From positions 32,001 to 96,000 of IMG/VR virus record IMGVR_UViG_3300046694_000315: a DNA stretch of 64,000 nucleotides. One strand, written 5' to 3'. Under the pieces are notes generated by a model. The model saw only the letters and a list, made by a program, of their open reading frames with translations, was not told the DNA's origin and searched no databases. The position numbers were made by a program, and so were the translations under genes. The DNA comes from a virus. Below, one piece after another: positions 477 to 60,202 of the stretch. The first letter of the stretch is position 1, and the number at the start of each line of letters is the position of its first letter.

Positions 477-1403
477 TCAGAAGGCTCCAGGAGCCACCTG
501 AAGGCACCGCAGACCGAGCAGGCGCCACATCTCCACGACCTGGTCACGGTCGTCGAGGACGAACCACACGTTGTAGAACGGCTCGATCTTCGCCCGGTAG
601 ATCTCCTCCTTGACGACCGAGTCCTTGCGCATGTCGTCTGGCGCCCGCATGTGCAGGTACGCCTCCCGCGTCCACTTGCCCACGTGCAGTTCCAGCCAGG
701 CCCGCGTCTGGTCGTAGCAGCAGCCGTCACGGCCGGACAGGAACACGATCTCCGCGCCGCTGTCCCGCAGGGTGTTCACCAGGTCGATGACCTCGCTGAT
801 CGGCTCGTCCTCGCCGACCCGGTCCCACTCGAACGGGCTGCGGCCGACCATCCGCGCCAGCGTGCCGTCGATGTCGACCAGGACCATGTTCGGCTTCGCC
901 GGGTCGTACGGGGGCGCCTCGGCAGGCTTCGGGGCCAGGTACTGGTTGTACATGTCCCGGATGACCTTCTCGCCGACGCTCCGATCCCGCTGGAGGTCAC
1001 GCTTGATGCAGGTATGAAGCGGCACGGCCGTGTGGTCGGAGACCTTGAACTCCGCACCGTGGTACGCGGCCAGCCGCCGCAGTTCCTTCTCGTGGTTGGG
1101 GTTGAGGTTGGTGTCGTCCACGATGACGCTCACGCCGTCGCCCAGGAACGCCTCGACGAGGGCGTTGCGGGCCCGCACGACCCGGCGTTCGTTCTTCCCG
1201 TGCCAGACGCTGTCGTGCAGCATCGTGCGCAGGTCGTCCTTGTTGATCCGGACCAGCGTGCCGGGCTGGGCCTTGGCCACGATCCGCTTCGCCTCGGTGC
1301 TCTTGCCGGAGCCGGGCAGTCCCTTGGTCATGGTCAGCGTCAGCATCGTCACGGGCTTCTCCTTGTTCTTCGGGCCGCAGCACCTGCACTTGTAGGTGCT
1401 CAC
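477..1403 (-). CDS. pseT: Polynucleotide 5'-kinase/3'-phosphatase (T4 PseT-like)
   Basis: P-loop GLPGSGKST, RINKDDLR, DDTN; C-terminal HAD DIDGTLA...SGR...DDR; GTG start overlaps upstream TGA. Confidence 0.92.
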   Translation of the reverse strand: MSTYKCRCCGPKNKEKPVTMLTLTMTKGLPGSGKSTEAKRIVAKAQPGTLVRINKDDLRTMLHDSVWHGKNERRVVRARNALVEAFLGDGVSVIVDDTNLNPNHEKELRRLAAYHGAEFKVSDHTAVPLHTCIKRDLQRDRSVGEKVIRDMYNQYLAPKPAEAPPYDPAKPNMVLVDIDGTLARMVGRSPFEWDRVGEDEPISEVIDLVNTLRDSGAEIVFLSGRDGCCYDQTRAWLELHVGKWTREAYLHMRAPDDMRKDSVVKEEIYRAKIEPFYNVWFVLDDRDQVVEMWRLLGLRCLQVAPGAF

Positions 1404-1699
1404 TGGCAGCACCCGTCGCAGCCGTGCAGGCCCTCGTAGGGGTGGTAGTCCTCGCCCTGGATCAGGCGCTTGTAGGCGAGGTCGTCCGGGTCGGGGTGAC
1501 CCACGCCGTGGGGACAGGTCCGCTCCATCAGCGCCCGGTCCATGCGGAAGTGCTGGGGGAAGGCGGCCATGGAGTGGGCGGAGGGGTTGTGAACGCAGCA
1601 GTGGCGGCCGATGCAGTCCTTGCGGGGGTGGGCGAGGATCTCCTCCCCGCCCACCAGCTCGGCCCGCTCGAACCACCCGCCGAAGTCGTCGGGCTCCAT
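1400..1699 (-). CDS. Cys/His-rich hypothetical phage protein
   Basis: MEPDDF...CIGRHCCVHNP...CPHGVGHPDPD...HGCDGCC; coupled to both neighbours. Confidence 0.75.
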   Translation of the reverse strand: MEPDDFGGWFERAELVGGEEILAHPRKDCIGRHCCVHNPSAHSMAAFPQHFRMDRALMERTCPHGVGHPDPDDLAYKRLIQGEDYHPYEGLHGCDGCCQ

Positions 1700-2799
1700 C
1701 AGGCAGCCGCCTCCGGGACCGACGCGAACGGGACCTCGTAGGCGGGCTTGACCCGCTTCCACACCCGCGAGGTGATGTCCTGGCCGCCGTACAGGCCGAA
1801 CAGGATGTCCCTGTAGGGGCTCTCGCAGGCCAGGAGGGCGAACTCCTTGCGGCGCTTCTGCGCGTCGTCCTCCGGCCTCACCAGGCGGCGCAGGATCCAG
1901 TCGAACTCCTCGCGTGCCTCCACCAGGGTGTCGGTGTAGGCCGCCTGCAAGGCGCTGACCTTCGCGCGGACCCAGTCGTAGAACTCGTCCGGGACGCTGT
2001 CGATGATCGCCTCGATCCCGTCGCCCTCGACCAGCGCCTCCCACAGGGTGAGCGTCGAGGTGTTCGTCAGGATGCGGTGCAGCCGCACGTACTCGTCGAA
2101 CTTGAACTTCACCCGCAGGTCGTGGCCGGGGAAGTGGACGACGAAGCCCTCCTGGTTCTCCTCCTGCGGCGCCGCCAGCACCTCGGAGAGGGACTCGAAG
2201 CCGACCGGCTGGTTGACCGGCCCCGGCCAGTCGTAGGGCCCCCACGGCAGCGAGCGACCGGTCTGGGTGTCGACCACCGCGAGCAGGACCAGGTCGTCCA
2301 GGCCCTTGTAGTCGACGACGATCCGGTTGGACGGGAAGACGATCTCGAAGAGGTACGTCAGACCCAGGATCGGCTCGAACGTCGGGTAGCGCGTCTCCAG
2401 GATCTTGTTCGCGTGCTGCGCCTGCGGGCTGGTGAAGGAGCCCCGCGTGGCGATGCGGAACTCCCCGGTATGAAGCAGGTAGCCGACGCCCAAGGAGCCG
2501 TCCCACTTCACGTACGTCTTGACCGGCTCGTTGATCAGTCGCGCCTGCTGGTCGGCGGGGATCTGCGACCAGTTGAAGAACTTCTCGAACGGCCGGGCCA
2601 CGACCTTCTCGGTGGTCGTGTCGATGATCAGACCCCGGGTCTTCTTGGTGACCTCGTTCCACTCGTTGTCGAACTGCGCCTTGTTCGTGTAGTTGAAGAT
2701 GGCCCGGCTGCCGTCGGGGTGGGTCTGGTGGCGGACGTAGCCCTTGGTGATGTTGTCGAGCAGGGCCTTCTCCGGAAGGACGTCGTACAGGTGCACCAT
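1699..2799 (-). CDS. RNA ligase (T4 Rnl1-like)
   Basis: Motif I KWDGSLG, ARPFEKFFN, ATRGSF, FEIV, EGFVV, KFK. Confidence 0.9.
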   Translation of the reverse strand: MVHLYDVLPEKALLDNITKGYVRHQTHPDGSRAIFNYTNKAQFDNEWNEVTKKTRGLIIDTTTEKVVARPFEKFFNWSQIPADQQARLINEPVKTYVKWDGSLGVGYLLHTGEFRIATRGSFTSPQAQHANKILETRYPTFEPILGLTYLFEIVFPSNRIVVDYKGLDDLVLLAVVDTQTGRSLPWGPYDWPGPVNQPVGFESLSEVLAAPQEENQEGFVVHFPGHDLRVKFKFDEYVRLHRILTNTSTLTLWEALVEGDGIEAIIDSVPDEFYDWVRAKVSALQAAYTDTLVEAREEFDWILRRLVRPEDDAQKRRKEFALLACESPYRDILFGLYGGQDITSRVWKRVKPAYEVPFASVPEAAA

Positions 2800-2823
2800 G
2801 TGTGCGCTCCTCGGTGGTGGTGG

Positions 2824-3045
2824 TCAGATGCGCTGGTCGATGGCGGCCACGACGCGCTGGGCGAAGTTCTCGTAGGCGCTGTCCGGCAGGTTCAGTCCGA
2901 ACCACTTCTTCGCCTCAAGGGCGACGATCTCGACGGCGGCCTCGCGCTGCTCTCCCTGGCGCTTGAGCCAGTCCTGGGCGGCGCTCTCGCGGGGGATGAC
3001 GAGGTGGCCGAGGTACATGGTGGGGCGGTCGTCCGTGGCGGTCAT
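2824..3045 (-). CDS. Hypothetical protein
   Basis: ORF with phage-like codon usage in operon. Confidence 0.65.
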   Translation of the reverse strand: MTATDDRPTMYLGHLVIPRESAAQDWLKRQGEQREAAVEIVALEAKKWFGLNLPDSAYENFAQRVVAAIDQRI

Positions 3046-3047
3046 GT

Positions 3048-3458
3048 TCAGCCCTTCTTCGCGGCCTTCTTGGCCTTCTTGTTCTTCTTGTTCTTCTTGG
3101 CCTTGCGGTCCCGCTGGTCGAGGTCGGTCTCGACGTCGCTCAGGGCCTCGTCCAACTTCTCGATGAAGAGGTAGACGGCGCCCTTGAGGCGGTCGGCCTT
3201 CGCGCGGGCGTTCTCCAGGTCCTTGCGGAGCTGGTCGCGGTCTTCCTCGGTGTTCGTCTGGCCGTAGACACCGAAGTCGAGAGTCACGCTGCGGGAGCAG
3301 TCCTGTATCTGGAGCGTGGCGCCGAAGTCCAGGTAGTCGTCGCTGGCGTCGCCGTCGTTGATCTCCGCGAGCACCGCGCCGAGGCCGTGGTGGCCCTGGT
3401 TGTTCAGGAACTCGCGGATGTAGAGGCGGCGCTGCTCGTCGGTGGTGGCGGTGCTCAT
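3048..3458 (-). CDS. Hypothetical protein, Lys-rich C-terminus
   Basis: AGGAG RBS before MSTATT; downstream of promoter 3518-3546. Confidence 0.7.
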   Translation of the reverse strand: MSTATTDEQRRLYIREFLNNQGHHGLGAVLAEINDGDASDDYLDFGATLQIQDCSRSVTLDFGVYGQTNTEEDRDQLRKDLENARAKADRLKGAVYLFIEKLDEALSDVETDLDQRDRKAKKNKKNKKAKKAAKKG

Positions 3459-3517
3459 GTTGCGGCTCCTAGCAGGTGTTGCTCTAGCGCCGGGTGGGGC
3501 GCCTTCCAATAACCAAG

Positions 3518-3546
3518 AACCTATAACGAGGAAGACGTAATCGCAA
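3518..3546 (-). promoter_or_regulatory. sigma70/HrdB-type promoter
   Basis: TTGCGA-N17-TAGGTT on minus strand. Confidence 0.55.
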
Positions 3547-3599
3547 GCGGTTTCGCTCAAGCGATTTACAAGCAACACTATGGCGCGCATCACACAACA

Positions 3600-3640
3600 C
3601 GAAGACCCCCGCCGGGAGGGTGTCCCGAAGGGGGTCTTCG
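3600..3640 (-). terminator. Intrinsic terminator hairpin
   Basis: CGAAGACCCCC...GGGGGTCTTCG after nucleotidyltransferase gene. Confidence 0.65.
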
Positions 3641-3652
3641 CAGGTCAGGCCG

Positions 3653-4306
3653 CTACAGCCGCCGCACGTAGTTGATGAAGTCCTGGAGCCGGTCCGTCCG
3701 AGGCTGCGCTGGAAGGATCCCGACGCGGTCGTTGAAGGTGTCGAAAGCCTTCCAGAACTCCTTCTCGATCTGCTCGGCGGTCATCTCGTCGAACGCCCAG
3801 TAGAACTCCGGGTCCGGCACCTTCACCGTCAGCGTGCCGAAGTCGAGCAACTGCTGGCCCTGCCGCAGCAGACGGAAGCAGTGCCGGGCGTGCTTCGCCA
3901 CACGCTTCTGTCGGCCGTCGTTGGCCAGCTCCTGCTTGATGCGCTTGATCTGACCCATGGCGTACCCGCCGTACGCCGAGCGCACGTAGGGCTCAGAGAG
4001 GAAATCCTCCCGGATGTCGAGGAGCCACTCCCCCTCCCAGGACTGCTGCTCGTACTCCTCCAGGTACATCAGATCAATGACCGTCGGGTTGCACTTCAGC
4101 GCGAGGTTCACGTACTTGCCGACCTCGTGCAGGGTGACGTCCGGAGCCGTGGACACGAGCGAGTCCTGGTGCTTGGCACCAATACGGAAGAACTCCGGAG
4201 TCGGACGGATGAAGATGCCCAGCCGGTCGATGTCCGACCCGGGCCGGGCCAGGCCGAAGGCAGTCGAGCCCACGACCCCGCTCAGCAGAATGTTCGGCGT
4301 CGTCAT
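3653..4306 (-). CDS. Nucleotidyltransferase (Pol beta superfamily)
   Basis: GSTAFGLARPGSDID, KCNPTVIDL, KHARHCFRLL. Confidence 0.85.
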   Translation of the reverse strand: MTTPNILLSGVVGSTAFGLARPGSDIDRLGIFIRPTPEFFRIGAKHQDSLVSTAPDVTLHEVGKYVNLALKCNPTVIDLMYLEEYEQQSWEGEWLLDIREDFLSEPYVRSAYGGYAMGQIKRIKQELANDGRQKRVAKHARHCFRLLRQGQQLLDFGTLTVKVPDPEFYWAFDEMTAEQIEKEFWKAFDTFNDRVGILPAQPRTDRLQDFINYVRRL

Positions 4307-4824
4307 CAGAACCAGTAGTCCTCAGACGGGTCGTCGCGGCCGTCGGTCTCCATGGCCTCGGCGGACTCCTCATACGTCGCCAGCGCCTCCTCCAGCGCCC
4401 TTCCCCACGTCTGTCCCTGGTCCTGCTCGACCTGAGCCACGGTGAGCAAGGCGAGCGTCTCGTTGTCGACCCTGAGATGCCCCTCCTCGACCAGGCTCTG
4501 GACCTCCGTGATGGTGCTGTCCGTGGCCGCCAGGTCCTCGTACGTCACGCCCTTGTAGGACAGCACGTAGCCGACCATGCAGGACGGCGCCTTGTCGGCC
4601 GGGCTGAAGTAGACGCACGGATTGGCGCCCGTCTCCGGGTCCAGGGGAGGCGCGTAGACGTAATCCTCCCCGCGCTCCTTCACTGCGCGGCCCAGCAGTT
4701 CCTTCGCCTCGTCCAGGGAGATCTCGACGGTGGCGGGCTTGGGCTTGGGGGTCTCGGCCTCCGGGGTATGAAGCGCGTCGTCGAGGGAGGGAACGGAGTC
4801 GATGATCTCGGTGAAGTTGAGCAT
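4306..4824 (-). CDS. Hypothetical protein
   Basis: MLNFTEII start; CVY..PSCMVG..QDQGQTWG pattern. Confidence 0.7.
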   Translation of the reverse strand: MLNFTEIIDSVPSLDDALHTPEAETPKPKPATVEISLDEAKELLGRAVKERGEDYVYAPPLDPETGANPCVYFSPADKAPSCMVGYVLSYKGVTYEDLAATDSTITEVQSLVEEGHLRVDNETLALLTVAQVEQDQGQTWGRALEEALATYEESAEAMETDGRDDPSEDYWF

Positions 4825-4850
4825 GGCGTTCTCGTTTCGTGTGGTGTTGG

Positions 4851-4994
4851 TCAGCCGTTGATGAGGTGGGCCGCGATGTAGAGCCCGGCGGCGACGCACA
4901 GGACGCGGAAGATGACGCGCCCGAGGGACTGGAACCACAGGTCGGCCTTCGACGGCCTCGGGCACGGGGCGTGGTTCTGGTCGAGGTTCTTCAC
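4851..4994 (-). CDS. Small membrane protein
   Basis: 47-aa ORF with hydrophobic C-terminus (read manually). Confidence 0.45.
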   Translation of the reverse strand: MKNLDQNHAPCPRPSKADLWFQSLGRVIFRVLCVAAGLYIAAHLING

Positions 4995-5863: not shown

Positions 5864-5936
5864 GGAGAGTCGATACCTCTCGTAGGTGGGACAGGTGCCC
5901 AGTGGGATGCACCCCGCTGGGCACCCGCATACCCGA

Positions 5937-6206
5937 CTAGGTATGAAGCCGTTCACGCTCGTCGAGATAGTCCGAGACGCCGTTGTCCCAGAACGGACCG
6001 AACACGTACTGCGCCGTCGCGTCGTACAGCGCGCTGCTGGCGACCGCCCCGCCATGAGGCAGCAGCTCCTCCGCCTGGACCGAGTTCTGCCGACCGGTGA
6101 GCAACGCCACCAACGCGGCCTCGTCAGCCGACAGCCGGAGCGTCACCGCCTCGGGCGACCCGTCGTCTCGGAACTCGATGCTCTTGACCAAGGCCATCTC
6201 GGCCAT
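5937..6206 (-). CDS. Hypothetical protein
   Basis: GAGGAG RBS; ends ERLHT*. Confidence 0.7.
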   Translation of the reverse strand: MAEMALVKSIEFRDDGSPEAVTLRLSADEAALVALLTGRQNSVQAEELLPHGGAVASSALYDATAQYVFGPFWDNGVSDYLDERERLHT

Positions 6207-6299
6207 CTCCTCTTCTTGTGCTCCGTCCGGGACAGCTCCCGGTACCGGTCCAGTACTCGTTGCTCGAACTTGCTCAGGTGTCTCAGCGGCGCTCCCGCC

Positions 6300-6674
6300 T
6301 CATCGGTCGTTCAGGGAGATCTCGATGCTGTTGCCGGACTTCGGGTGGAGAAGCAGGCTGCTGCTGCCGTGGACCGTCAGCCGGTTGTCCTCTTGCAGCG
6401 TCACGTGGAAGTACGACCACCAGTCCGGGTGGCGCTCCGGCTTGTACCGGAACTCGATCGGCGTCCACTGGTCGACCGCGAGGCGGCGCCGGTTCACGCT
6501 GTGCGGGTCGATGACGACGGGGGCGTTCTCCGCGACGTCGTTGTTGAGCAAGGCCCGCACGGAGGCCAGCTCCTGCTCCAGCCGGATGATCCGCTCACCC
6601 CTCGCACGAAGTCGGTCCTTCACCCACTTCGGCAGGCGCTCGAACCTCGGGTCCTCTTCGATCGGCGTGTTCAC
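6300..6674 (-). CDS. Hypothetical protein
   Basis: AAGGAG RBS; N-terminal RLPKW coiled coil. Confidence 0.7.
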   Translation of the reverse strand: MNTPIEEDPRFERLPKWVKDRLRARGERIIRLEQELASVRALLNNDVAENAPVVIDPHSVNRRRLAVDQWTPIEFRYKPERHPDWWSYFHVTLQEDNRLTVHGSSSLLLHPKSGNSIEISLNDR

Positions 6675-6906
6675 GGCTGCTCCTTGTAACGTTGGGCCGG
6701 GCCCCGGTGGCCGCCCGCACTAGACCTGCGGACGGCCACCGGGGTTTCCTGCTAGCTGCGGTCGGCGCACTTCTCGCCGTTGGGGCACTCCTCGCGCGGG
6801 AAGCCATCCCCGCACAGGCTCGGGTCGATACCGATACCGGCGCCCAGCTCACCCAGTTCCAGCGGGCCTTCGTCCTGCACCCACCGGTCGGCGCTGTTCT
6901 CGTACA

Positions 6907-7164
6907 TCAGATGTCCGCCTTCTCCAGTCGCTCCCAGACCGGGCCCCAGCCGTCGCGGGTACCGTCCAGCAGGCCCGAGGCCTTGATGACGTAGTCCCGG
7001 TGCAGGGAGCGGTTCTCCAGGAGGCCATCCTCGGTGAGCACGTCCCCACGCCAGGCGCCGGACGACCCCTGCGTGACCGAGCGGATGATCCCCGGGGCCA
7101 GGGAGTGGTTGTACATGATCGAGACACGGTCGCCGACCCTGTACGGTGCGCGCTGCTGAGCCAT
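6907..7164 (-). CDS. Hypothetical protein
   Basis: AAGGAGG RBS, downstream of promoter. Confidence 0.7.
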   Translation of the reverse strand: MAQQRAPYRVGDRVSIMYNHSLAPGIIRSVTQGSSGAWRGDVLTEDGLLENRSLHRDYVIKASGLLDGTRDGWGPVWERLEKADI

Positions 7165-7205
7165 GGTTCCTCCTTCTGCGTTACTGCTTCCGAAGCAGTA
7201 AGAGG

Positions 7206-7235
7206 AATCTATCCGGCGCCACTACGTCTCGTCAA
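7206..7235 (-). promoter_or_regulatory. HrdB-type promoter
   Basis: TTGACG-N18-TAGATT. Confidence 0.6.
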
Positions 7236-7318
7236 GCCATATCGCCAACTGACTTTCCAAGCATGAAGAAGGCCCCCACCCGGTCTCCCAGGAAGGGGCC
7301 TACGACAGCGCTACGTAG

Positions 7319-7483
7319 CTACTCAGTTCGCGTGATCGTGATCCTTGAGGTGACGTCGTCGCTCAGCAGGGACTCCACGGTCTGCGCCACCTGCTCCGGA
7401 GCCTCGACCTCGATCTGGGACGACTGCGCCCGCTGCTGCCCCGGCTTCAGGGGGTGCTGGTACTTGACTACGTACTTCGACAC
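7319..7483 (-). CDS. Small hypothetical protein
   Basis: AGGAGG RBS; MSKYVVKYQHP... Confidence 0.55.
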   Translation of the reverse strand: MSKYVVKYQHPLKPGQQRAQSSQIEVEAPEQVAQTVESLLSDDVTSRITITRTE

Positions 7484-7484
7484 G

Positions 7485-7916
7485 TCATACCCCTCCTACT
7501 AGTGCCTGCACCACCTTGTTCAGCGCACGCTGCGCCGACCGCTTCCCTGACTCGATGCTGGAGCACGTGAGGAACCGCTCGTCGTCTCCCCCACCGAGGA
7601 ACAGGGAGTAGTTGCACGAGTCCATGGCTGAACTCTCGTATGTGTACCTGAAGACGTCAGCCACCTTCCGGTCGCCGATGTAGCCGACCCACAGTTCCCC
7701 CTTGGGGTGCGCCTCCTGGCGCCACTCGATCGACTGCGCCTTGATGGGGGGCTTCTTCTTGGGCTCCGCTGGATGCCCCCTGCGGACCGCCTCAACCCGA
7801 GTGCATCCCTGATTGTCGATGGCGTGCTGAAGGTCAGCACCAATGCCCCGGTCGTCGTAAACCTCGATCACCGTGGGGCGTGGCTGCTCTGGCTCCCAGT
7901 AACGCAGCTTCCACAT
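7485..7916 (-). CDS. Hypothetical protein
   Basis: ORF in tight operon. Confidence 0.65.
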   Translation of the reverse strand: MWKLRYWEPEQPRPTVIEVYDDRGIGADLQHAIDNQGCTRVEAVRRGHPAEPKKKPPIKAQSIEWRQEAHPKGELWVGYIGDRKVADVFRYTYESSAMDSCNYSLFLGGGDDERFLTCSSIESGKRSAQRALNKVVQALVGGV

Positions 7917-7917
7917 G

Positions 7918-8954: not shown

Positions 8955-9057
8955 GACCCGGCGCTCCGCGCCTCCGCCGAACCCTTGAAGAAGGACTCGT
9001 AGCTCTCGAACGCGCGCGAGACCCCGGCCTCCTCGTCGCGGTACCACTTCGGGGCGC

Positions 9058-10174: not shown

Positions 10175-10210
10175 CTCAACTCCCCTTCCGTCGTTCTCAA
10201 TTACGGGATA

Positions 10211-10239: not shown

Positions 10240-10297
10240 GCACTTTCATACACTCGCTTGCGTGGCAGGAACCGCTGGTTCCGCTTACTCTCAAATC

Positions 10298-19481: not shown

Positions 19482-19483
19482 GG

Positions 19484-52975: not shown

Positions 52976-53932
52976 TTAGAACCGTGCGAGGACGGATGAG
53001 TAGGCGTTGTCGACGGCGTAGGTGATCTCGCTGTCGGTCATGTCTCCGGGGTCCTTGGCGGACGTGTGGGAGTAGTCGAGGAAGCGCAGGGTCAGGCCTC
53101 GTCCGACCCACTCCTTGCGCAGCCGGGCGCAGGCCTCGACTCCGGCCTTGTCGTTGTCCAGGGCGATGACGACGGTGTCGAAGTGGTCGCGGATCAGGGA
53201 CATCTGGGCGTCGGAGACTCCGGCGCCGAAGGCGGCCAGCCCGGCCTTGTATCCCGCCGCGCGCAGCCGGGCCACGTCGAGGGGCGACTCGACCAGGATG
53301 GCCAGGTCGTCCTCGTAGGTATGAAGCCCGAAGAGGGTCTTGGACTTCGTCATGGAGTTGGGCCGGTTGCGGAAGTAGCGGGAGTTCTTCTCCTGCCAGC
53401 CCCAGAGCATGCCGGTGTCGGGGCAGCGCACCGGGACGATCCACATGTCGCGCTTGGGATCCCAGAGCACTCCGGCGGCCTCGGCGTCCTGGGGGAAGAA
53501 CATGCGCTCTGCGCAAGCGGCCAGCGGCGGGGTCACGTACAGGGCCAGCGAGGCCTCATTGATGTGCTTGGTCGTGTCGACCTGGCTCGGCTGCTTCTTC
53601 GCCAGGAACTTCTTCACCCGCTCGATGCCGCCGCGCCCGCGCACCCACACCGCCGCGTCGCTGTACGGGATGTCGAGCACGTCCTTGACCAGGACGACGA
53701 ACGGGCCCCGGTAGCCGCAGGAGAAGCAGTTGAAATAGCCAGCGTCGGAGTTGATAGAGAAGGATGGGTGCTTGTCTTTCTTTCCCGTCCGCGCCTCGTG
53801 CATGGGGCACGGCATATGAATCTCGTCGCCGTTCACCTTGTAGTCGAGACCGATCTCGTCCAAGCAGGCGGTGACGTTTCCCGGAATGGGGGTGCCTACT
53901 GCGTCCCAGCCCTTGGCTTTCGCTCGGACCAT
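52976..53932 (-). CDS. dnaG: DNA primase (CHC2 Zn finger plus Toprim)
   Basis: CPMH..PSFS..CFSC; VESPLD; LDND.AG. Confidence 0.92.
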   Translation of the reverse strand: MVRAKAKGWDAVGTPIPGNVTACLDEIGLDYKVNGDEIHMPCPMHEARTGKKDKHPSFSINSDAGYFNCFSCGYRGPFVVLVKDVLDIPYSDAAVWVRGRGGIERVKKFLAKKQPSQVDTTKHINEASLALYVTPPLAACAERMFFPQDAEAAGVLWDPKRDMWIVPVRCPDTGMLWGWQEKNSRYFRNRPNSMTKSKTLFGLHTYEDDLAILVESPLDVARLRAAGYKAGLAAFGAGVSDAQMSLIRDHFDTVVIALDNDKAGVEACARLRKEWVGRGLTLRFLDYSHTSAKDPGDMTDSEITYAVDNAYSSVLARF

Positions 53933-54180: not shown

Positions 54181-55423
54181 CGGTGTTCTCCTCGTCCATG
54201 GCGAAGGGGTCCTCGTTGAGTTCCTCGAACTTGCCGGTCTCCCAGTCCCACTGGCAGTAGGTCTCCAGGGGCGGGCAGTTACGGGCCAGGACGACCTTGA
54301 TCTTGTTGATGTTCGCGTCCTCCGTGGACTCGACACCGAGGATCACGTCGGAGTCCTGGGCGAAGGAGGACGAATATCCGATGGAGTCAGACGTGATGCC
54401 CTTCTTCTTGTTCATCTTCCATTCCAGGACCTGCGTGGAAATGACGATCGGGAGTTGCAGGTTCTTCGCCATGCGCTTGAATCCTCGGGTGAGGTTGGTA
54501 AGCGCCTGGCTGGATCCCTGAGCCTCGCCGAGTTCGTCCTGCATCATGTAGATGCCGTCCACGAATACGATCGTCGGCTTGATGTGGTCGATCTTCGACT
54601 GCACACCGGTAAGCGTCGTCGCATTCATGGAGTCCGAGGAAAGGAAGAACGAAGGCATAGCCTCCAGTTCCCGCAAGGCCCTTTCGAGTTTGTCCCACTC
54701 GGCCTTCTTGAGCGTTCCATTCCTCAGCCGGGCGTGGGAAATCCCCGCGCGAATGGCGTCGAAGCGTTCCTCCTGCTCCTCGTTGCTCATCTCGAAGCCG
54801 ATGAACAGCGGGCGCTCGCCGTGCAGGTGGGCGGCCATGGCGGCCAGCAGGAGCAGCGTCGACTTACCGGCCTTCGGCGGGCCGACGAAGGTGACCAACT
54901 GCTCCTTCTGGAGGCCCTGGGTGGCCCTGTCGATCGTCGTAAAGCCGGTGGGGATCCCCCGGAGCCCGTCGGGCAGGTCCTTGAGCGTGAGGTACCGCGC
55001 GAGGCGCTGCTGGCCGGTCTCCGTCAGGTCAGTGTCGCGGGCGTTGGGTACGGCCGAGGCGATGTCCGCCAGGGTCTTGTGCAGGGCCGCCATCGCGGCC
55101 AGCGCGTCGCCCTCTTCGTGTGCGTCGACCGAGTCGGCCAGGCCCTGCTCCAGCAGGGCCAAAGTATGAAGTTCCCGCAGCCGGTCGGTCAGCACGTTCA
55201 TGCTGTCCTCGACCTTGACGAACTTGTAGGTGGGGAAGTCCGTCTTGATCGTGGCCAGGGACGGCACCTCACCGTAGGTGCCCTTGTGCCGCAGGATCGC
55301 CTTGAAGACGGCCCGGTTGTCCGGGTCGCCGAAGAAGTCGGGGGTGATGCCCGCGTCCGCGACGTCAGTCAGGTCCTTGTCCTGGATGACGCGGGAGACG
55401 AGCAGCCGCTCGAAGTCCGCCAC
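54158..55423 (-). CDS. dnaB: DnaB-like replicative helicase
   Basis: GIPTGF, GPPKAGKS, FEMS, VDG, QDSD. Confidence 0.92.
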   Translation of the reverse strand: MADFERLLVSRVIQDKDLTDVADAGITPDFFGDPDNRAVFKAILRHKGTYGEVPSLATIKTDFPTYKFVKVEDSMNVLTDRLRELHTLALLEQGLADSVDAHEEGDALAAMAALHKTLADIASAVPNARDTDLTETGQQRLARYLTLKDLPDGLRGIPTGFTTIDRATQGLQKEQLVTFVGPPKAGKSTLLLLAAMAAHLHGERPLFIGFEMSNEEQEERFDAIRAGISHARLRNGTLKKAEWDKLERALRELEAMPSFFLSSDSMNATTLTGVQSKIDHIKPTIVFVDGIYMMQDELGEAQGSSQALTNLTRGFKRMAKNLQLPIVISTQVLEWKMNKKKGITSDSIGYSSSFAQDSDVILGVESTEDANINKIKVVLARNCPPLETYCQWDWETGKFEELNEDPFAMDEENTDGYVGAF

Positions 55424-55866
55424 TACATGGCTCCGATCAGGGTGGTGGGTACGGCCGGGAGCATGCGCCCCTTGCTGCCGTAGATCAGGTGGTGTTCGTT
55501 GTCGAAGATCGCTGCGACGTCCGGCATGTGTGCCAGGCGGCGGGCCAGCTTCTTCGGCTCGTCGGCCCAGATGCGGCCGATGGGCAGGCCCTCGATGTCC
55601 AGGCGCCATTCCAGGGCCTCGGCGAACTCGTCGCCCAGGTAGGTGATGACGTCGACCGAGTACCGGTGGCGCCAGACCGTGTCCCAGATGACGTGGGCCA
55701 GCGGCTCGTTGATCTCGTAGGCCTTCACCGCGCGCTTCCACTGGTGAGCGCGGCGGGCCACGGCTTCGCCAGCTCGGGTACGTGCGGTGGGCAGGTTGCC
55801 CAGGAGGCCTTCGAAGACGACGACCAGGCGCGGGGAGACCTCGTTGCTTATGTCCCCGCCCTGCAT
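55423..55866 (-). CDS. Hypothetical protein (HAD-fold-like)
   Basis: MQGGDISNE..VVFEGLL. Confidence 0.65.
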   Translation of the reverse strand: MQGGDISNEVSPRLVVVFEGLLGNLPTARTRAGEAVARRAHQWKRAVKAYEINEPLAHVIWDTVWRHRYSVDVITYLGDEFAEALEWRLDIEGLPIGRIWADEPKKLARRLAHMPDVAAIFDNEHHLIYGSKGRMLPAVPTTLIGAM

Positions 55867-56111
55867 CAGGTTCGCTCCGCGTCCGCGCGGAGCCAGATAT
55901 GAAGCCGGTTGCCCCGGACCTCGCGCCGGTCGCTGTAGCGGAAGGGCCGGAAGCCGAGACTCTTGGCGCGGGCCCAGGCCAGGCGCTTCAGCATGCTGAC
56001 GGTGTGCTGCTGCTCGGGGAACCTGCCGGTGATCGTCGACAGGATCTCGTCTTTGTAGACAACTGACAAAATCTCGTCCTCGAAGGGGAGGACCATCTGC
56101 TCATGCTGCAC
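55866..56111 (-). CDS. Hypothetical protein
   Basis: Coupled ORF; N-terminal QMVLPF. Confidence 0.55.
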   Translation of the reverse strand: MQHEQMVLPFEDEILSVVYKDEILSTITGRFPEQQHTVSMLKRLAWARAKSLGFRPFRYSDRREVRGNRLHIWLRADAERT

Positions 56112-56760
56112 GGCGGTCTCCTCCGACGATCGTGAGGTGGGTGAAGGCCTCCTGGATGAAGGAGCCCATCGTGGGGTTGTAGACGGCGCCCCACTCCCGG
56201 GGCGGGAGGTTCGAGGTGACCAGGGTGGGCAGGGCCTCGCGGTGACGCTGGCGCAGGAGGGTGTCGAGCAGGCCTTCGGCGTAGCCGGTCTTGGTGCGGT
56301 GCTCCTTGCCGACGTCGTCCAGGAGGAGGACGGGGGCCTTCTCGGCCGCCACGATCTTGTCCTGGATCTCCCACCAGCGGGCGACGGCTTCGGGCTCGTG
56401 CCGGTCCTGGAGGCCCATCTTCTCGATGGAGTCCTTCACGAAGTCGGCGTAGGCCAGCCAGTGGACCGGCAGGCGCTTCTCGAAGTAGACCTCCAGCAGG
56501 GTGGCCGTGGCCAGGGAGGTCTTGCCGGTGCCGGGAGGGCCGACGAACAGCAGGCCCTTGCCGATCTGGGACCAGTCCTCGGGGTACTGGTCGAGCGGGC
56601 GCTTGTCGGTGACGTAGTGGTCGCGCAGGTTGTCGAGCCAGGTCTGGCAGGCGGCGCGCGGCGCGGCGTCCGCCACGGTATGAAGCCGCAGGTGGCGGTA
56701 GTGCGCCGGGATGCCGTACTCCTTCAGGCGCAGGGCGTGGACCCGGGGGTCTGTCGCCAT
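56101..56760 (-). CDS. DnaC/IstB-like AAA+ helicase loader
   Basis: GPPGTGKT, LLLDDVGKE, R..PTLVTSN. Confidence 0.88.
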   Translation of the reverse strand: MATDPRVHALRLKEYGIPAHYRHLRLHTVADAAPRAACQTWLDNLRDHYVTDKRPLDQYPEDWSQIGKGLLFVGPPGTGKTSLATATLLEVYFEKRLPVHWLAYADFVKDSIEKMGLQDRHEPEAVARWWEIQDKIVAAEKAPVLLLDDVGKEHRTKTGYAEGLLDTLLRQRHREALPTLVTSNLPPREWGAVYNPTMGSFIQEAFTHLTIVGGDRRAA

Positions 56761-56882: not shown

Positions 56883-57866
56883 TCAGGACCAGTAGTCCTC
56901 GTTGAACCGGTTGTCCTCCATCGCACTGACGGCCTTGCCCAGTCGCTGGGTCAGCAGCCCACGGGCGGCCAGGAAGTCCTTCCAGGCGACCACGTTGTCC
57001 GAGCGCTGCCAGGACGACGACCAGTAGGTGATGATCATCTGGCGGATCTCGTCCCGCTCCGTGCCCTGTGCCATCCACCGGCCGAAGTTGCCGGTGAGGG
57101 CGGAGAGGTTGGTCGTGCCGGGTACCGGGTGGCCCACCTCCTGGGCCCTCTTGTCGAAGAACAGGGCCAGTTCCTCTGACGGCCGCGTGGAGCGCTTCCT
57201 GGGAGGTCGCTGGACCGGAGGGGCCGGGATGTCCTGCGAGGCCGGGAGATCGCCGTAGAGACTGAACGACGGGGCGCTCTCCTCCAGGGACTGGGAGACC
57301 ACGAACGCCGGGTCGAGTTCCCTCTCCGCCTGAGCCTGCTCTTCGGCCACCTGCTTCCGGGACTTCTTCCGGCCGCCACGCTTGGGTGCCGCGACGGCCC
57401 CCCAGCCCTTGGCTCCTGGCCTGGTCACAGGTTCGTCTTGCAGGGCGTCGCCCTGGAGATACGAAGTATCTCTATTACTTCTAGTAGGGATATTGGGGTT
57501 GGGTGAAAACTTCGACACAGGGGGTGCAGATTCTGCACTGCTCAGGGGTGCAGAATCTGCACTCGGGGAGGTCACCGACCACTCCGCCACCGGCTTGATA
57601 CGCCGGACCACGGACTTGTAGCGCAGGGCTTCCACGGGCACCTCGTCGTCCGGCACGTGCTCGACGACCCCCTGCTCCTCCAGGGTCGCCAGCGAGGCGT
57701 ACGCCTGCCGCTTGGAGACGCGCGCCTTGCCCGCGATGGTGTCGGCGGACTCCCAGCACATGCGGTGGGTGTCGTTGGCGGCGTCGGCCAGCGCGAGCAG
57801 CACCAGGCGGGTGGCCAGGCGCGTGTCGGAGTACGAGAACACCTCGGACATGATCAGGATGCTCAC
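56883..57866 (-). CDS. Replication initiator with N-terminal winged HTH
   Basis: RLVLLALADAAN..CWES..IA...S.RQ; directly upstream of loader. Confidence 0.75.
   Translation of the reverse strand: MSILIMSEVFSYSDTRLATRLVLLALADAANDTHRMCWESADTIAGKARVSKRQAYASLATLEEQGVVEHVPDDEVPVEALRYKSVVRRIKPVAEWSVTSPSADSAPLSSAESAPPVSKFSPNPNIPTRSNRDTSYLQGDALQDEPVTRPGAKGWGAVAAPKRGGRKKSRKQVAEEQAQAERELDPAFVVSQSLEESAPSFSLYGDLPASQDIPAPPVQRPPRKRSTRPSEELALFFDKRAQEVGHPVPGTTNLSALTGNFGRWMAQGTERDEIRQMIITYWSSSWQRSDNVVAWKDFLAARGLLTQRLGKAVSAMEDNRFNEDYWS
57521..57563. repeat. Two palindromic direct repeats inside initiator gene (iteron-like)
   Basis: GGGGTGCAGATTCTGCACT (57521-57539) and GGGGTGCAGAATCTGCACT (57545-57563) next to an AT-rich tract. 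Confidence 0.7.
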
Positions 57867-57961
57867 TCGGCGACTCCGAGGAAGCGATAAGTATGAAGCG
57901 ATATCCCCATGCTAGGGTCTCTCTCATCTCGGGGTTTGTGGTGGGCCTCGGGGTGTGGTGG

Positions 57962-58026: not shown

Positions 58027-59265
58027 TCACTCCGAGTCGAAGTCGAGGCCCTTCTCCTCGATCTCCGCCCGCGTCAACTGGACGACCTTCTGTCCGGCCG
58101 GGATCCGGCCACGGCCGCGACGGCTGTAGTTGCCCTCGTCGTCGACCAGGTAGGCGAACGTCTTGGTCTCGTCACGCGGACGGCCACGGCGACGGCGCGG
58201 GGTCGACTCCTCTTCCTCCTGCTCCTCGGCGGCCGGAGCCTCCGAGGCCTTCTCCTGCTGGGCGGCGTCGCCCAGGGTATGAAGCGCCTTTCGGAGCAGT
58301 TCGGTCAGCGGGCGCTCGCGCACGTCGGCCTGGTTGATGACCGCGTTGCGCTCGTCCTCCAGTCGGAAGGCGTTGTAGGCACCCTCCAAAGCGGCGCGCA
58401 CGAGGAGCAGGTCGATCTCCGTGTCCGGGACCGCCTTGGCGGCCTCCTGCTGCGCCTTGTGCTGCGCTCGGGCGACCTCCTGCTCCAGGCTCTCCTGGTT
58501 CTGGATGTCCTCCTCGACCGGGTCTGCCTCCGGCTCGGGCTCCGGCTGGGCCTTGCGGCGACCGCGACGCTTCGGCGCCTCCGGCTCGGGCTCCGGCTGC
58601 GGCTCCGGCTGCGCTTCCGGCTCGTCCTCCGTCAGCGGCTCCTCTTCCACCTCGACCGGCTCCGGCTCGGCACGGCGACCGCGACGGCGGCCACGCTTCG
58701 GCGCCTCCGGCTCGGGCTCCGGCTCGGGCTCGGGAGCGGCCTCGGCCTCGGGCTCGGGCTCGGGCTCGGGCTCGCTGGCGAAGGAGATGTCGTCGAGTCC
58801 GGCCGTGAGGTCCTTCGCCTTGATCCCGGCGGCCTCGGCCGCGTCCAGAAGGAGTTCGGCTTCCTCGCTGCCCTCGTCGCCCCACAGGAGGATGACGTGG
58901 GCGTCGCCGACGCTGTCGGCCTTCTTCAGCAGGTCGACGATCCCGGCGGTGACGTTGGCCGTGCGCACGACCTCCTCGGCGTCCTTGAGGATGGAGTCCA
59001 CGGCCCGGCTCTTCTCGCCGTCGGTGACCGCGATGAACGGGATGTCCGCGTACTCCGACCACTCCAGCACGGCCTCCAGGCCGTCGGACAGGTGCTTCTT
59101 GGTGATCGGCAGGATGAGGGTGACTTCCCGCTCGGTGGGCTCGGGGAAGCCGTCGGCGTCGTCCTCGCCCAGGCCGACGAAGTCGTTCAGCAGAGCCTTG
59201 ACGTTGTCGATGTCGGTGTCGGCGGAGCCAGCGAAGGCGAGGGCGATGGGGTCGGTGCTGCTCAA
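58027..59265 (-). CDS. Acidic protein with EP repeats and AT-hook/Lsr2-like motifs
   Basis: [25 protein letters not shown]; (EP)n tracts. Confidence 0.75.
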
Positions 59266-59386
59266 GTCTGCTCCAGGTGTGGTGTGTTTGCCGCCTTGAT
59301 CGGCGACGAGGAAGACGTTACCGGTTACGGCTTCTAAAAGCAAGAAATCCCCGCTTGTCTAGCGGAGATTTCAAGTGGCTTGACAA

Positions 59387-59671
59387 TCAGGGCAGGTCGG
59401 GGACCCTCCGGCCGGTGGACGGATGCCTGCGGGGAAGTCTCAGCGGCGGTGCCTCCGTCCCCCCGCGCACCTGGAGATGCAGCAGCGCCACCGCGCCCGC
59501 AGCCGCCACGGCGGCCAGCCACGGGACAGGCAGCCGCTGGGCCTCATAGGCCAGGCCGACCACAGCGAGCGGCTGGAGCCCGGCCGGAAGGGAGAAGGGC
59601 AGGACGACGAGCAGCCACTCCCACGCCGTGAACGTGGCGAGGGCGATCAGCGCGAAACGCAACCAGTCCAT
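59387..59671 (-). CDS. Small membrane protein
   Basis: Hydrophobic segments. Confidence 0.6.
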   Translation of the reverse strand: MDWLRFALIALATFTAWEWLLVVLPFSLPAGLQPLAVVGLAYEAQRLPVPWLAAVAAAGAVALLHLQVRGGTEAPPLRLPRRHPSTGRRVPDLP

Positions 59672-59674
59672 GGC

Positions 59675-60202
59675 TCAGACCGCCGACGCGGTGAGGTCGA
59701 TGGACTTCGACAAGGCGGCAGCCGGGCCCGGGACCTCGGCCACGTCCGCGACTGCCTGTGGCAGGGTGCGCCGCAGGACGGACTCCAGGGCCGTGACGAT
59801 CTGCTGGACGGCCTCTGCGCTCAAGGCGTTGCTGCTGGCCGGGACGACGGCGCTCTCCTCGACGTACTCCTCGACGGTCCCGGACGGGATATGAAGCCGG
59901 ATCTCCGCCTCCGCGATCAGCGTGTTCTGGAGCCGGGCGAACCAGGAGTACTTCTTCAGCAGCGAGTGGTAGAAGGTCGTGCCGGACACCCACGCCAGGA
60001 ACGCGGCGACGACGGCGGGCGCCCAGTAGAAGTGCTGGGGGTGCGCCTGGTAGACGGCCCAGAATCCGGTGGCAACCGCTAGGACGGCATGCGCCGCTCC
60101 CTTGACTGTGCTGTTGGTGGACGGCTTGGAGAACAGAGCGACCACGGCCGGTAGGCCCAGGCCGACGACGAGGGAGGACACGTCGGCGTAGTTGGTGAAC
60201 AT
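59675..60202 (-). CDS. Holin-like membrane protein
   Basis: About 3 N-terminal TM segments; after tail genes. Confidence 0.55.
   Translation of the reverse strand: MFTNYADVSSLVVGLGLPAVVALFSKPSTNSTVKGAAHAVLAVATGFWAVYQAHPQHFYWAPAVVAAFLAWVSGTTFYHSLLKKYSWFARLQNTLIAEAEIRLHIPSGTVEEYVEESAVVPASSNALSAEAVQQIVTALESVLRRTLPQAVADVAEVPGPAAALSKSIDLTASAV

Follow-up and report, generated by a model that had tools for sequence, protein, structure and literature searches.

The question raised by the phage DNA analysed here (the window, 64,000 nucleotides, positions 32,001 to 96,000 of IMG/VR record IMGVR_UViG_3300046694_000315) is why a short word, CTTCATAY, recurs throughout its genes and what might read it. 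The window contains 31 copies, all on the minus (gene) strand, versus at most 4 (mean 0.61) after shuffling, and the whole genome (106,046 bp) contains 42 copies on the minus strand and one on the plus strand. A literature search found no paper describing the motif. As far as sequence comparison can tell, CTT-CAT-ACC and an accompanying hairpin, present in about 40 copies in genes and leader mini-genes, point to an undescribed signal for the translating ribosome.

Gene calls were based on third-position G+C, and the frames were designated A (CTT-CAT-AYN), B (TTC-ATA) and C (the third). The original prediction held that all 29 intragenic copies share one frame, and our count returned the same 29 of 31 within ORFs, every one of them in frame A; the other two (42610-42618 and 57890-57898) lie in the same frame in mini-ORFs of 10 and 15 codons, which are led by ribosome sites. 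Over this genome, frame A accounts for 34-36 of about 38 genic copies, and the two seemingly out-of-frame copies, which came from a crude gene set, are overlap and leader cases. When the frame split was computed from codon usage outside the motif, only 15-23% was expected for frame A, with 60-75% for B and 10-17% for C, and near-matches (Hamming distance 2-3) are in frame A in 23-28% of cases. In nine related genomes, 265 of 270 copies occupy frame A of called genes and five occupy other frames, so copies in other frames are not seen at the rate predicted by codon usage. Of these five, four trace back to the leader and overlap cases already named, and the remaining one is an isolated off-type CTTCATATT in genome G005, which belongs to the AAT type described below; a further 79 copies lie in short or uncalled ORFs. 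Both codons had been noted as otherwise rare; among the 139 CTT and 104 CAT codons tabulated in called genes, about 34 of each kind lie inside the motif, and Leu-His pairs are written CTTCAT 36 times, CTGCAC 25 times and CTCCAC 8 times. Moreover, six to seven peptides in each of frames B and C could become the motif by synonymous changes alone, and none has been converted. The frame lock persists under every null model that we built (codon usage, near-matches and synonymous-convertible peptides).

Sister phages carry CTT-AAT-ACC at sites orthologous to CTT-CAT-ACC, a single-base switch (A/C) at about 40 sites, and in PolA the only column separating the two phage types is the motif His/Asn position. 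The type is nearly pure within each genome, the single exception found being one CTTAATACC in the CAT-type prophage G011. Because the type is near-uniform per genome while His and Asn are swapped at orthologous sites, the nucleotides, not the amino acid, are conserved. In the AAT variant, frame B is barred by TTA-ATA and frame C by a TAA stop, so the frame lock would be partly inherited if AAT were ancestral. A tRNA-Asn(GUU) gene occurs in every phage genome with a tRNA region (the partial contig G004 lacks this region and G008 was left out), a hint that the AAT type came first.

These features could suit an mRNA binding or cleavage site for a sequence-specific phage protein, such as a translational repressor or an endoribonuclease, which would recognize a single-stranded word beside a hairpin without translation, the single frame being a by-product of coding constraints and AAT inheritance. 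Typical of RNA-binding proteins are 9-11 specified bases beside a structure, a near-uniform type with a one-base switch at about 40 sites fits a one-base-specific protein, the AAT type closes frames B and C, and the flanking preferences are estimated to suit frame A about 3-4 times better than the others. However, at least 10 sites gained independently in CAT-type lineages all use frame A though B and C are allowed there, one-step synonymous paths into frame B (ATC to ATA) were left unused, untranslated spacers carry no copies, and cleavage within essential ORFs would bring no evident benefit. Sites outside long ORFs, which are mostly start-led, also speak against recognition without translation, and we regard such a protein site as rather unlikely.

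Among 38 sites outside long ORFs in seven genomes, an in-frame ATG or GTG stands 2-9 codons upstream in 31, while the same test gave 5 for frame B and 0 for frame C. Many of these mini-ORFs are led by AGGAG-type ribosome sites and end in a stop overlapping the start that follows (TTGA, GTGA, TAATG, ATGA, TGATG), and indels between start codon and motif among relatives are multiples of three; judging from these signatures, motif sites outside long ORFs are evidently translated. The RecA leader mini-ORF (42592-42624, minus strand; element 42571-42624), with motif 42610-42618 and a hairpin extending to the RecA start, specifies Met-Arg-Leu-His-Thr-Tyr-Gly-Gly-Pro-Cys. It has AGGAG 9 nt before its ATG and a TGA stop overlapping the TTG/GTG start of recA, and its ATG and frame are kept not only in both types but also in a relative whose PolA is 67% identical. 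The 15-codon leader mini-ORF 57863-57910 (minus strand; element 57861-57910; motif 57890-57898) lies upstream of a replication-initiator-like gene (56883-57866, assigned from PHROG). Its in-frame ATG, 4 codons before the motif, stays in frame in relatives despite 3-nt indels, and its stop overlaps an in-frame GTG (GTGA), five codons before the called ATG start at 57866.

Five genomes each have a single copy on the opposite strand, and in every case it lies in frame A inside a small ORF of that strand and encodes Leu-His-Thr or Leu-Asn-Thr, matching the genome type; therefore, the polarity of the motif follows the gene and not the chromosome. This copy contradicts a polar signal on the chromosome strand, such as a Chi-like, KOPS-like, primase, nicking or packaging site, which was considered since all copies but one share a DNA strand and are fairly evenly spaced in the dense zone (mean 1.36 kb, coefficient of variation 0.62). 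Such a signal, which we find scarcely credible, would also leave the frame lock, the mini-ORFs and the RNA hairpin unexplained, and against it stand an 18-kb zone of the genome without the motif and a host chromosome that holds the word at chance level only, on both strands. The host is taken to be Streptomyces because a relative of the phage is a prophage in Streptomyces sp. NPDC002088.

The full cassette consists of (G/A)-CUU-CAU-ACC, two free bases and a G+C-rich hairpin with its first pair at motif position 12. Folding energy over positions +10 to +39 is -11.1 kcal/mol versus -6.3 in controls (z = -10), and in 37% of sites the first helix begins at position 12 (6% of controls), with 67% beginning at positions 10-14 (26% of controls). 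Orthologous sites keep the hairpin, and 12 compensatory pairs were counted over 14 sites, while orthologues without the motif are also without the hairpin (-7.1 vs. -9.7); the loops are not conserved. The hairpin, the A/C type switch and the leader mini-ORFs all go beyond the original prediction.

Going down the window, the remaining cassettes (all on the minus strand, with the span of the element first in brackets) begin with motif 59888-59896 (CTTCATATC) and its downstream fold (59878-59896; codon 103 of 175, ORF 59675-60202, frame A), followed by motif 58276-58284 with hairpin 58258-58275 (58258-58284; codon 354 of 438, ORF 58027-59343) and motif 56677-56685 with hairpin 56650-56674 (56650-56685; frame A, ORF ending 56101; helix from position 12). 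The ATC variant 55896-55904 (55874-55904; codon 70 of 81, ORF 55866-56111) is joined to hairpin 55874-55893, which is conserved in 18 orthologues. The DnaB-like helicase gene carries motif 55163-55171 and an 8-bp hairpin, 55141-55160 (55141-55171; codon 191 of 527), a site confined to CAT-type genomes, with CAG-CAC-ACC in AAT-type orthologues. The primase gene carries motif 53318-53326 and a hairpin with compensatory changes in three pairs (53278-53326; codon 219 of 334), and its AAT-type orthologues have CTG-CAC-ACC, which encodes the same Leu-His-Thr. Motif 52936-52944 with hairpin 52921-52934 (52921-52944; codon 8 of 65, ORF 52768-52965) has its counterpart in relatives in a mini-ORF of 14-16 codons with a stop overlapping the start that follows. 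Further sites are 50394-50402, which is CAT-type-only and has a weak or late helix (50360-50402; codon 50 of 125, ORF 50172-50549), 49477-49485 with hairpin 49456-49474 (49456-49485; codon 35 of 153; helix from position 12), 48735-48743 with hairpin 48717-48732 (48717-48743; codon 50 of 270) and, in the DNA polymerase A gene, 47950-47958 with hairpin 47920-47947 (47920-47958; codon 14 of 659).

The ribonucleotide reductase gene possesses two cassettes, namely motif 44497-44505 with a hairpin intact in 29 orthologues (44477-44505; codon 196 of 654) and motif 43654-43662 with its hairpin (43623-43662; codon 477 of 654), the latter gained in this lineage, as G003, G004 and G005 have CTC-CAC-CCG or CTG-CAC-CAG. 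At the RecA C-terminus, motif 41423-41431 with hairpin 41403-41420 (41403-41431; codon 432 of 437) is four codons before a TGATG stop/start overlap. Each with a hairpin, motifs are also present in a resolvase-like ORF (40979-40987; element 40951-40987; codon 98 of 114), an RNA-ligase-like ORF (38200-38208; element 38160-38208; codon 179 of 227), a dNMP-kinase-like ORF (36263-36271; element 36240-36271; codon 189 of 200) and the endolysin gene (31650-31658; element 31632-31658; codon 281 of 395), as well as at 32915-32923 (32899-32923; codon 407 of 419), 31033-31041 (31016-31041; frame A, ORF ending 30613), 30028-30036 (ACT variant; 30000-30036; codon 17 of 129), 28443-28451 (ATC variant; 28410-28451; codon 60 of 287) and 26618-26626 (26588-26626; codon 171 of 282), the last a CAT-type-only site with CTG-CAC-ACC in AAT-type orthologues. 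The TGT-like gene (ORF 24723-26261) carries CTT-CAT-ATG at 25974-25982 with a hairpin (25942-25982; codon 94 of 512), and the ORF of a probable secreted or membrane protein (24166-24564) carries motif 24454-24462 with a hairpin (24413-24462; frame A), a site conserved in all genomes compared. Motif 5940-5948 (5898-5948) forms the last three sense codons of an 89-codon ORF, 5937-6206, directly followed by the stop TAG; this ORF overlaps the next gene, and in relative G001 the site is in an 8-codon mini-ORF with its own ribosome-binding site. The motif at 4765-4773 (codon 65 of 219, ORF 4306-4965) stands alone, no helix having been found there, while the Rnl1-type RNA ligase gene carries motif 2467-2475 with a 12-bp hairpin (2435-2475; codon 109 of 366) and the polynucleotide kinase-phosphatase gene carries motif 1011-1019 with a late helix (974-1019; codon 220 of 399).

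In these cassettes, 5 nt separate the presumed A-site codon from the hairpin. Known frameshift stimulators have spacers of 5-9 nt, and CUU is the P-site codon at the prfB and Ty1 +1 shift sites. By analogy, the distance from word to hairpin would be that usual in signals for ribosomal pausing or frameshifting, CUU occupying the P site and CAU or AAU the A site. With somewhat less than even confidence, we favour reading the motif as the sequence-specific part of a bipartite mRNA cassette for translational pausing or recoding. When the P site holds CUU and the A site CAU (AAU in sisters), the base of the hairpin would lie at the presumed mRNA entrance; the codon before CUU, which ends in a purine, is non-optimal here, and the next two codons end in U and would be read by G-U wobble. 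We infer that the ribosome would be held there in a programmed pause, from which a +1 slip on CUU might branch off, and it would be released via a type-specific factor, either a sequence-specific RNA reader or the supply of tRNA-His/tRNA-Asn. Translation of about 40 phage ORFs might thereby be throttled or timed, and recA and the replication-initiator gene might be governed by the leader mini-ORFs whose stop overlaps the start that follows. A search of the +1 and -1 frames for designed stops or conserved ORFs found neither; productive frameshifting is therefore unsupported. The exact 9-11-nt word and the near-uniform type, which are needless for a slow-codon pause, argue for a sequence-specific reader, and a search for one identified none. 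The conservation of ACC (positions 7-9), where only a spacer would be needed, is an observation against a pause cassette.

That the element acts during translation, as first proposed, is thus favoured by the frame lock, the mini-ORFs, the flipped copy and the hairpin, but the associated link to queuosine and the TGT-like gene proved weak. CAU and AAU are both read by G34-U35 tRNAs, and the suggested dependence on tRNA supply is compatible with phage tRNA-Asn and tRNA-His, which fall short of proof. The phages have no dedicated tRNA for CUU, and an unusual long-arm tRNA-His(GUG) was found only in CAT-type genomes or contigs; G003, which is CAT-type, is without the tRNA-His gene, a further point against the pause cassette. 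If CAU/AAU decoding needed a 7-deazaguanine (queuosine-like) G34 in tRNA-His/tRNA-Asn, made by the TGT-like enzyme, efficient translation of genes with a cassette would have to await tRNA modification. This idea draws on the shared G34-U35 decoding of both variant codons, on tRNA-Asn being phage-encoded with tRNA-His additionally in CAT-type phages, and on a TGT-superfamily fold, which is plausible for ORF 24723-26261. However, the fold of this ORF bears only a remote likeness to TGT (TM 0.3-0.48), its only match is PHROG 887, with neither a Pfam TGT match nor a PDB sequence match, a QueC gene was looked for in vain, and the ORF, which bears a cassette itself, is conserved to the same degree in both phage types. 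Phage enzymes of the TGT-like family act on DNA, and the fixed CUU, ACC and preceding purine as well as His-only and Asn-only genomes would be left unexplained, making this a very improbable explanation.

The phage is temperate, given the prophage relative in Streptomyces sp. NPDC002088 and the provirus classification of G010, and a stoperator-like DNA site might be imagined, in which an immunity repressor on about 40 asymmetric sites would block RNA polymerase in the prophage and CAT and AAT would be two immunity specificities. Besides temperateness, the sites are oriented with transcription, the flipped copy included, and are syntenic with a type-specific variant in almost uniform genomes; syntenic sites with a lineage-specific consensus have likewise been described for stoperators (PMC6550527). 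Yet a reading frame, a start codon and an RNA hairpin, all present here, would be needless there, a hairpin downstream of the word would be useless to a DNA roadblock, and the motif was not found to be enriched immediately before gene starts. Another repeated, near-palindromic word with TTGACA marks at least six repeated upstream modules in the zone without the motif (5900-24600) and is the likelier operator. We hold the stoperator explanation to be improbable.

Compared with known systems, the cassette resembles those of prfB (CUU-UGA-C), Ty1 (CUU-AGG-C) and the dnaX heptamer in that a spacer separates a short in-frame word from a stem-loop whose distance is fixed, and it would share with programmed frameshift and pause cassettes CUU as the P-site codon and a rare A-site codon, with a 5-nt spacer within the range of 5-9 nt. 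Unlike them, it is repeated about 40 times in each genome, across leader mini-ORFs and genes unrelated to one another, the main ORF always runs on in the zero frame, the shifted frames are without a conserved product or designed stop, ACC is fixed after the A-site codon, and an A/C type switch is genome-wide. With the stoperators of cluster A mycobacteriophages (L5, Bxb1; PMC6550527) it shares dozens of asymmetric sites oriented with transcription in a temperate actinophage, in syntenic places and with a lineage-specific consensus. Stoperators are double-stranded DNA repressor sites, whereas promoters here are marked by another operator-like word. To our knowledge, a reading-frame rule, a start-codon requirement and an adjacent RNA hairpin are not features of stoperators. 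Like the bldA/TTA-codon regulon of Streptomyces, the cassette would be a rare in-frame codon signal over many high-G+C actinobacterial genes that is read during translation only, but it comprises three codons together with flanks and a hairpin instead of a single codon, and is served by no dedicated CUU tRNA, with phage tRNA-His in part of the clade only. Bacterial SECIS elements (UGA plus a hairpin in coding sequence) likewise join an in-frame codon to a fixed-distance coding hairpin, and the unusual long-arm tRNA matches the variable codon in one subclade; in contrast to SECIS, loops here are not conserved, that tRNA is absent in G003 and all AAT-type phages, and no SelB-like factor is among the Pfam families listed for the ORFs of the window. 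Finally, as in the RegB/RegA control of early mRNAs in T4, a short RNA word may tag one group of phage mRNAs as targets of a factor from the phage, although the T4 sites lie in initiation regions and are frame-independent.

A total of 31 copies of the word CTTCATAY are present in the window, where 0.6 would be expected, and all of them (31/31) lie on the minus strand, which is the gene strand; the whole genome holds 42 minus-strand copies and one plus-strand copy. With the coding frame assigned by third-position G+C, 29 window copies are located in ORFs and every one of them reads CTT-CAT-AYN (hereafter frame A; frame B reads TTC-ATA and frame C is the remaining one), which bears out the single frame claimed for the intragenic copies in the original prediction, and the remaining two are found in mini-ORFs in the same frame. 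According to codon usage outside the motif, chance would place 15-23% of copies in frame A, against all 29 ORF copies observed, and 60-75% in frame B, and the frame A share of near-matches convertible by mutation is 23-28%. The word lies within 34 of the 39 Leu-His-(Thr/Ile/Met) tripeptides, and 6-7 peptides in each of frames B and C could hold it by synonymous change alone, but none does. As well, the word contains about one quarter of all CTT codons and about one third of all CAT codons, and CAT makes up 12% of His codons outside the motif. Copies in other frames do not occur at the rate predicted by codon usage elsewhere either, as nine related genomes carry 265 copies in frame A and five in other frames. 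Four of these five could be traced and prove to be leader or overlap situations; the one left over is a single off-type copy in G005, a relative of the second type described below.

The information in the word spans positions -3 to +13 (in order: not-A, C/G, G>A, CTTCATAC, C, T>G, N, G>C, G). The codons that precede it are Arg CGG/CGA, Gly GGG/GGA, Ala GCG, and Ser TCG, the C-ending codons, which are the commonest in the genome, being almost absent there, and the purine at -1 is a preference at the nucleotide level. Among 36 close relatives collected via PolA, 13 carry CTTCATAC (CAT type), and 23 have none of it and instead carry CTTAATACC, reading Leu-Asn-Thr, at matching positions with no change of frame (AAT type). 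Since the second type has a Leu-Asn-Thr word at the same sites, it is the nucleotides that matter and not the peptide. Type-private sites fall on the native residue of the protein: CAT-only sites correspond to CTG-CAC-ACC or CAG-CAC-ACC in the AAT type, and AAT-only sites to CTG-AAC-ACC and similar sequences in the CAT type. Genomes are nearly pure in type, and the exceptions seen are single off-type copies only. For instance, the CAT-type prophage in G011 (contig C18) has one CTTAATACC at 136147, 21 nt before CTTCATACC at 136168, and AAT-type phages have two adjacent sites at the matching place; the lone copy may be a remnant of exchange between types. Variants with G or T were sought through the RecA leader, which returned A and C types only, the T-variant matches coming from an unrelated low-G+C phage gene. 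The two types are not distinguished by PolA, in which the sole discriminating column is the motif His/Asn itself. Neither the word nor an analogous word is enriched in the distant relatives, namely BRock, whose PolA is 52% identical, and those at 67% PolA identity.

In the AAT type, frame A is forced, since the word would amount to TTA-ATA in frame B and to a TAA stop in frame C. This constraint cannot account for the CAT type. It is possible that the word is a site for an RNA-binding protein or an RNase, acting with no need for translation, if the frame lock was mostly inherited from the AAT type. However, CAT-type lineages have made at least 10 independent gains of the word, every one in frame A, and the one-step synonymous route in frame B was never taken. 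These frame A gains argue against such a site, and so do the mini-ORFs that surround the copies outside long ORFs.

Across seven genomes, 38 sites were located outside long ORFs, and for 31 of them an ATG or GTG lies in frame, 2-9 codons upstream, with no stop between, whereas the same test on frames B and C returned 5 and 0, respectively. One such mini-ORF precedes recA, where AGGAG is followed by 10 codons (Met-Arg-Leu-His-Thr-Tyr-Gly-Gly-Pro-Cys) and a stop that shares bases with the TTG/GTG recA start codon. Both types conserve the ATG, the frame, and this overlap, with the second codon free to vary, and a relative with 67% PolA identity has one additional codon there. The replication-initiator gene and several others are preceded by a mini-ORF of the same plan, with TAATG, ATGA, or TGATG overlaps. 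In addition, no copy of the word was found in untranslated spacers. Judged from these start codons and frames, the copies beyond long ORFs are probably translated as well.

A hairpin follows the word. Folding the 30 nt on its 3' side gave -11.1 kcal/mol compared with -6.3 at control codon positions (z = -10). Among 123 sites in three genomes, the first helix begins at motif position 12 in 37% (controls, 6%) and within positions 10-14 in 67% (controls, 26%). The full cassette consists of the word, two free bases, and the hairpin. Hairpins persist at orthologous sites, where few pairs are broken and 14 sites show 12 compensatory pairs, and orthologues that have no word fold near background (-7.1, versus -9.7 in the word-bearing partners). 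Because stem sequences and loops vary among sites, the hairpin appears to act as a structure and not as a second word. Testing fixed flank columns for covariation gave nothing and missed the hairpin, because the stems vary in length; the hairpin was revealed by folding the downstream stretch. No Rfam family matched in the window.

With CUU in the P site and CAU or AAU in the A site, five bases (ACC plus two) separate the A-site codon from the helix. In -1 and +1 frameshift signals, the stimulatory structure lies 5-9 nt past the A-site codon, and prfB and Ty1 both use CUU as their slippery codon in the P site. Since this spacing and the CUU fit known frameshift signals, the anatomy points to a ribosomal pause or recoding cassette, which would provide a direct cause for the frame lock. 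A +1 frameshift site is expected to have a shift-prone P-site codon before a slow A-site codon, a stimulatory structure at fixed spacing, and a product dependent on the shifted frame or else a stop designed into it. The first two are present here, as CUU precedes CAU/AAU and the helix has its fixed spacing, but the third is not: the distance to a stop in the +1 and -1 frames is no shorter than it is at control positions, conserved shifted ORFs are absent, and the ORFs go on in the zero frame. A shift-to-stop design was therefore rejected, and productive frameshifting is unsupported. The frame lock, the mini-ORF sites, and the hairpin geometry thus favor the earlier proposal that the element acts during translation, while the pause itself, its reader, and its purpose are inferences.

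Exactly one opposite-strand copy per genome was found in five genomes. In all of them (5/5) a small ORF on that strand, 48-60 codons long, contains the copy at codon 11-16 and in frame A, and the copy reads Leu-His-Thr or Leu-Asn-Thr in agreement with the genome type. In the virus itself, this plus-strand copy (genome 16843-16850, outside the window) belongs to a small divergent plus-strand ORF beside recombinase genes (locus L004, genome 16813-16959), which is the sole plus-strand cassette gene. A TAGTAC/TAGTAT box stands a few bases 5' of the ATG of this ORF, and its start looks, by sequence, like a leaderless one or one with a very short leader. Polarity goes with the gene, not with the chromosome strand. 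Chi-like, KOPS-like, primase, nicking, and packaging models were removed because the opposite-strand ORF bears the word on its own strand. The host chromosome has about 25 copies in 10.6 Mb, on both strands and at chance level, and the prophage about 45; a polar motif of the Chi/KOPS type would show both strand-tied polarity and host over-representation, neither of which was seen.

Cassettes are closely packed in the replication module (mean spacing 1.36 kb, coefficient of variation 0.62) and sparser in the structural genes. Intragenic copies are enriched close to ORF starts and ends. A promoter role was rejected because the motif is not enriched upstream of gene starts, and a scan for consensus promoters and terminators was uninformative. 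An antisense target was rejected as well, as the complementary word GTATGAAG is present on the sense strand once per CAT-type genome, in unrelated contexts. The cassette is missing from window 5949-24453, a zone in which short units have repeated promoter-like modules of their own and the genes lack an assigned function. At least six copies of a TTGACA module, with a near-palindromic word and a conserved leader ending in a CCAGGAGG-type ribosome-binding site, were found on the gene strand of window 5900-24600, and they look like promoter/operator units of short operons.

An asymmetric, transcription-oriented word with a lineage-specific consensus at syntenic places is also what a stoperator, a DNA roadblock site for a phage repressor, would display. 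Stoperators are read as DNA and, to our knowledge, require neither a frame nor a start codon nor an RNA hairpin, whereas the word is locked in frame, follows start codons, and has a co-evolving RNA hairpin. Moreover, it is not enriched directly upstream of gene starts, and the likelier operator is the other word, which contains TTGACA and marks the upstream modules repeated across the 18 kb that lack the motif. We therefore regard a stoperator as quite improbable and prefer an element that acts during translation.

The virus record is 106,046 bp long with terminal repeats, and the window, which covers bases 32001-96000 of it, has 65% G+C and nearly all of its genes on the minus strand. A replication and nucleotide module in the window comprises DNA polymerase A, a DnaB-like helicase, primase, RecA, an SNF2 helicase, ribonucleotide reductase, and a replication-initiator-like protein, and an endolysin is also encoded. 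The closest isolates are Streptomyces phages of the BRock group, with a PolA identity of only 52%, the prophage in Streptomyces sp. NPDC002088 is much nearer (93%), and another relative is a provirus by classification. Because of this prophage and provirus, the host genus is taken to be Streptomyces and the phage to be temperate. An RNA repair module on the minus strand (window 480-4306), consisting of a polynucleotide kinase-phosphatase (480-1676), an Rnl1-type RNA ligase (1702-2799), and RlaP (3656-4306), adjoins the tRNA cluster, which suggests protection from an anticodon nuclease of the host.

Pro, Phe, Leu(CAA), and Asn tRNAs are encoded by the phages, some of which have a His tRNA as well. 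tRNA-Asn(GUU) is present in every scanned genome that includes the tRNA region (the scan covered all genomes but G008, and all of these but the partial contig G004 include the region). tRNA-His(GUG) is encoded on the minus strand at genome 28973-29058, about 2.9 kb left of the window start; it is 86 nt long with a long variable arm, an encoded G-1, and C73, and reads as a histidine identity set on a type-II body. It was found solely in CAT-type phages of the window's subclade, that is, in four genomes (this one, G001, G002, and the NPDC002088 prophage) and three further contigs (loci L113, L116, and L117). It is missing from the AAT-type G010 and G005, the AAT genomes whose tRNA region was seen, and also from the CAT-type G003, for which reason tRNA genes were rejected as the determinant of type. 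A c-di-AMP riboswitch (RF00379, 62.7 bits) is placed between tRNA-Phe and tRNA-Leu inside the tRNA cluster of G003 (locus L058, 1130-1269).

A TGT-like gene had been named in the original prediction as one possible link, through queuosine. Its ORF (window 24723-26261) matches PHROG 887 (E = 2e-75) and has a remote TGT fold resemblance, with no Pfam TGT match and no PDB sequence match. The N-terminal 270 residues form a confident barrel in the model that is only remotely like archaeosine/queuine transglycosylases, and the C-terminal half has four invariant cysteines (C362, C365, C371, and C380). The protein has more than 600 homologues, all nameless and without Pfam domains. A QueC gene was looked for and not found, and conservation of the ORF does not track the CAT/AAT type. 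Accordingly, the queuosine version is weakly supported.

That the word is exact, its ACC fixed, and the type almost uniform within each genome argues for a sequence-specific reader rather than just slow codons. The tRNA genes described above offer a hint in this respect. The reader was sought among type-separating proteins and not found, as these are few and linkage-like. The best candidates, a resolvase-like protein of 114 residues and a few small ORFs, were set aside as most likely reflecting linkage only. The primase, which has 27 type-separating columns, was also set aside, because the CAT2 primase of G003 is as distant from that of the window as the AAT ones are.

A literature search for the words found no paper describing them, the matches being primer sequences only. 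We tentatively propose, with considerable doubt, that the cassette could represent a new class of genome-wide translational operator, in which ribosomes would be locked at the in-frame word, against the hairpin, by a reader that is encoded by the phage or controlled by the prophage and that distinguishes a single base. It would serve as a switchable elongation brake on about 40 ORFs, and CAT and AAT would be mutually blind specificities, like immunity groups that act on ribosomes and not on RNA polymerase. If the cassette does hold ribosomes, the virus would regulate dozens of genes at the elongation step, and a compact, portable, and orthogonal translational control pair would be available for Streptomyces. 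The question can be tested directly, given the natural CAT/AAT pairs and a lysogen that can be cultivated, Streptomyces sp. NPDC002088.

Compared with known systems, the bldA regulon depends on one rare codon and one dedicated, regulated tRNA, whereas the cassette is a three-codon word with flanks and a hairpin. SECIS has a conserved loop bound by a dedicated elongation factor, but cassette loops and sequences differ from site to site, and no elongation-factor family is among the best 25 Pfam families listed for window ORFs. The stoperators of cluster A mycobacteriophages are numerous, transcription-oriented, and syntenic, with a lineage-specific consensus (PMC6550527). The cassette is like them in site number, orientation, synteny, and lineage-specific consensus, and differs in its frame, start codon, and RNA hairpin. 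The recoding and pause signals that we know of are single, gene-specific devices, and the genome-wide phage signals known to us (stoperators, Chi sites, and packaging sites, for example) are recognized at the DNA level. The element described here has the anatomy of a ribosomal signal but is spread like the mark of a regulon, and it has two natural specificities, one base apart at the same sites.
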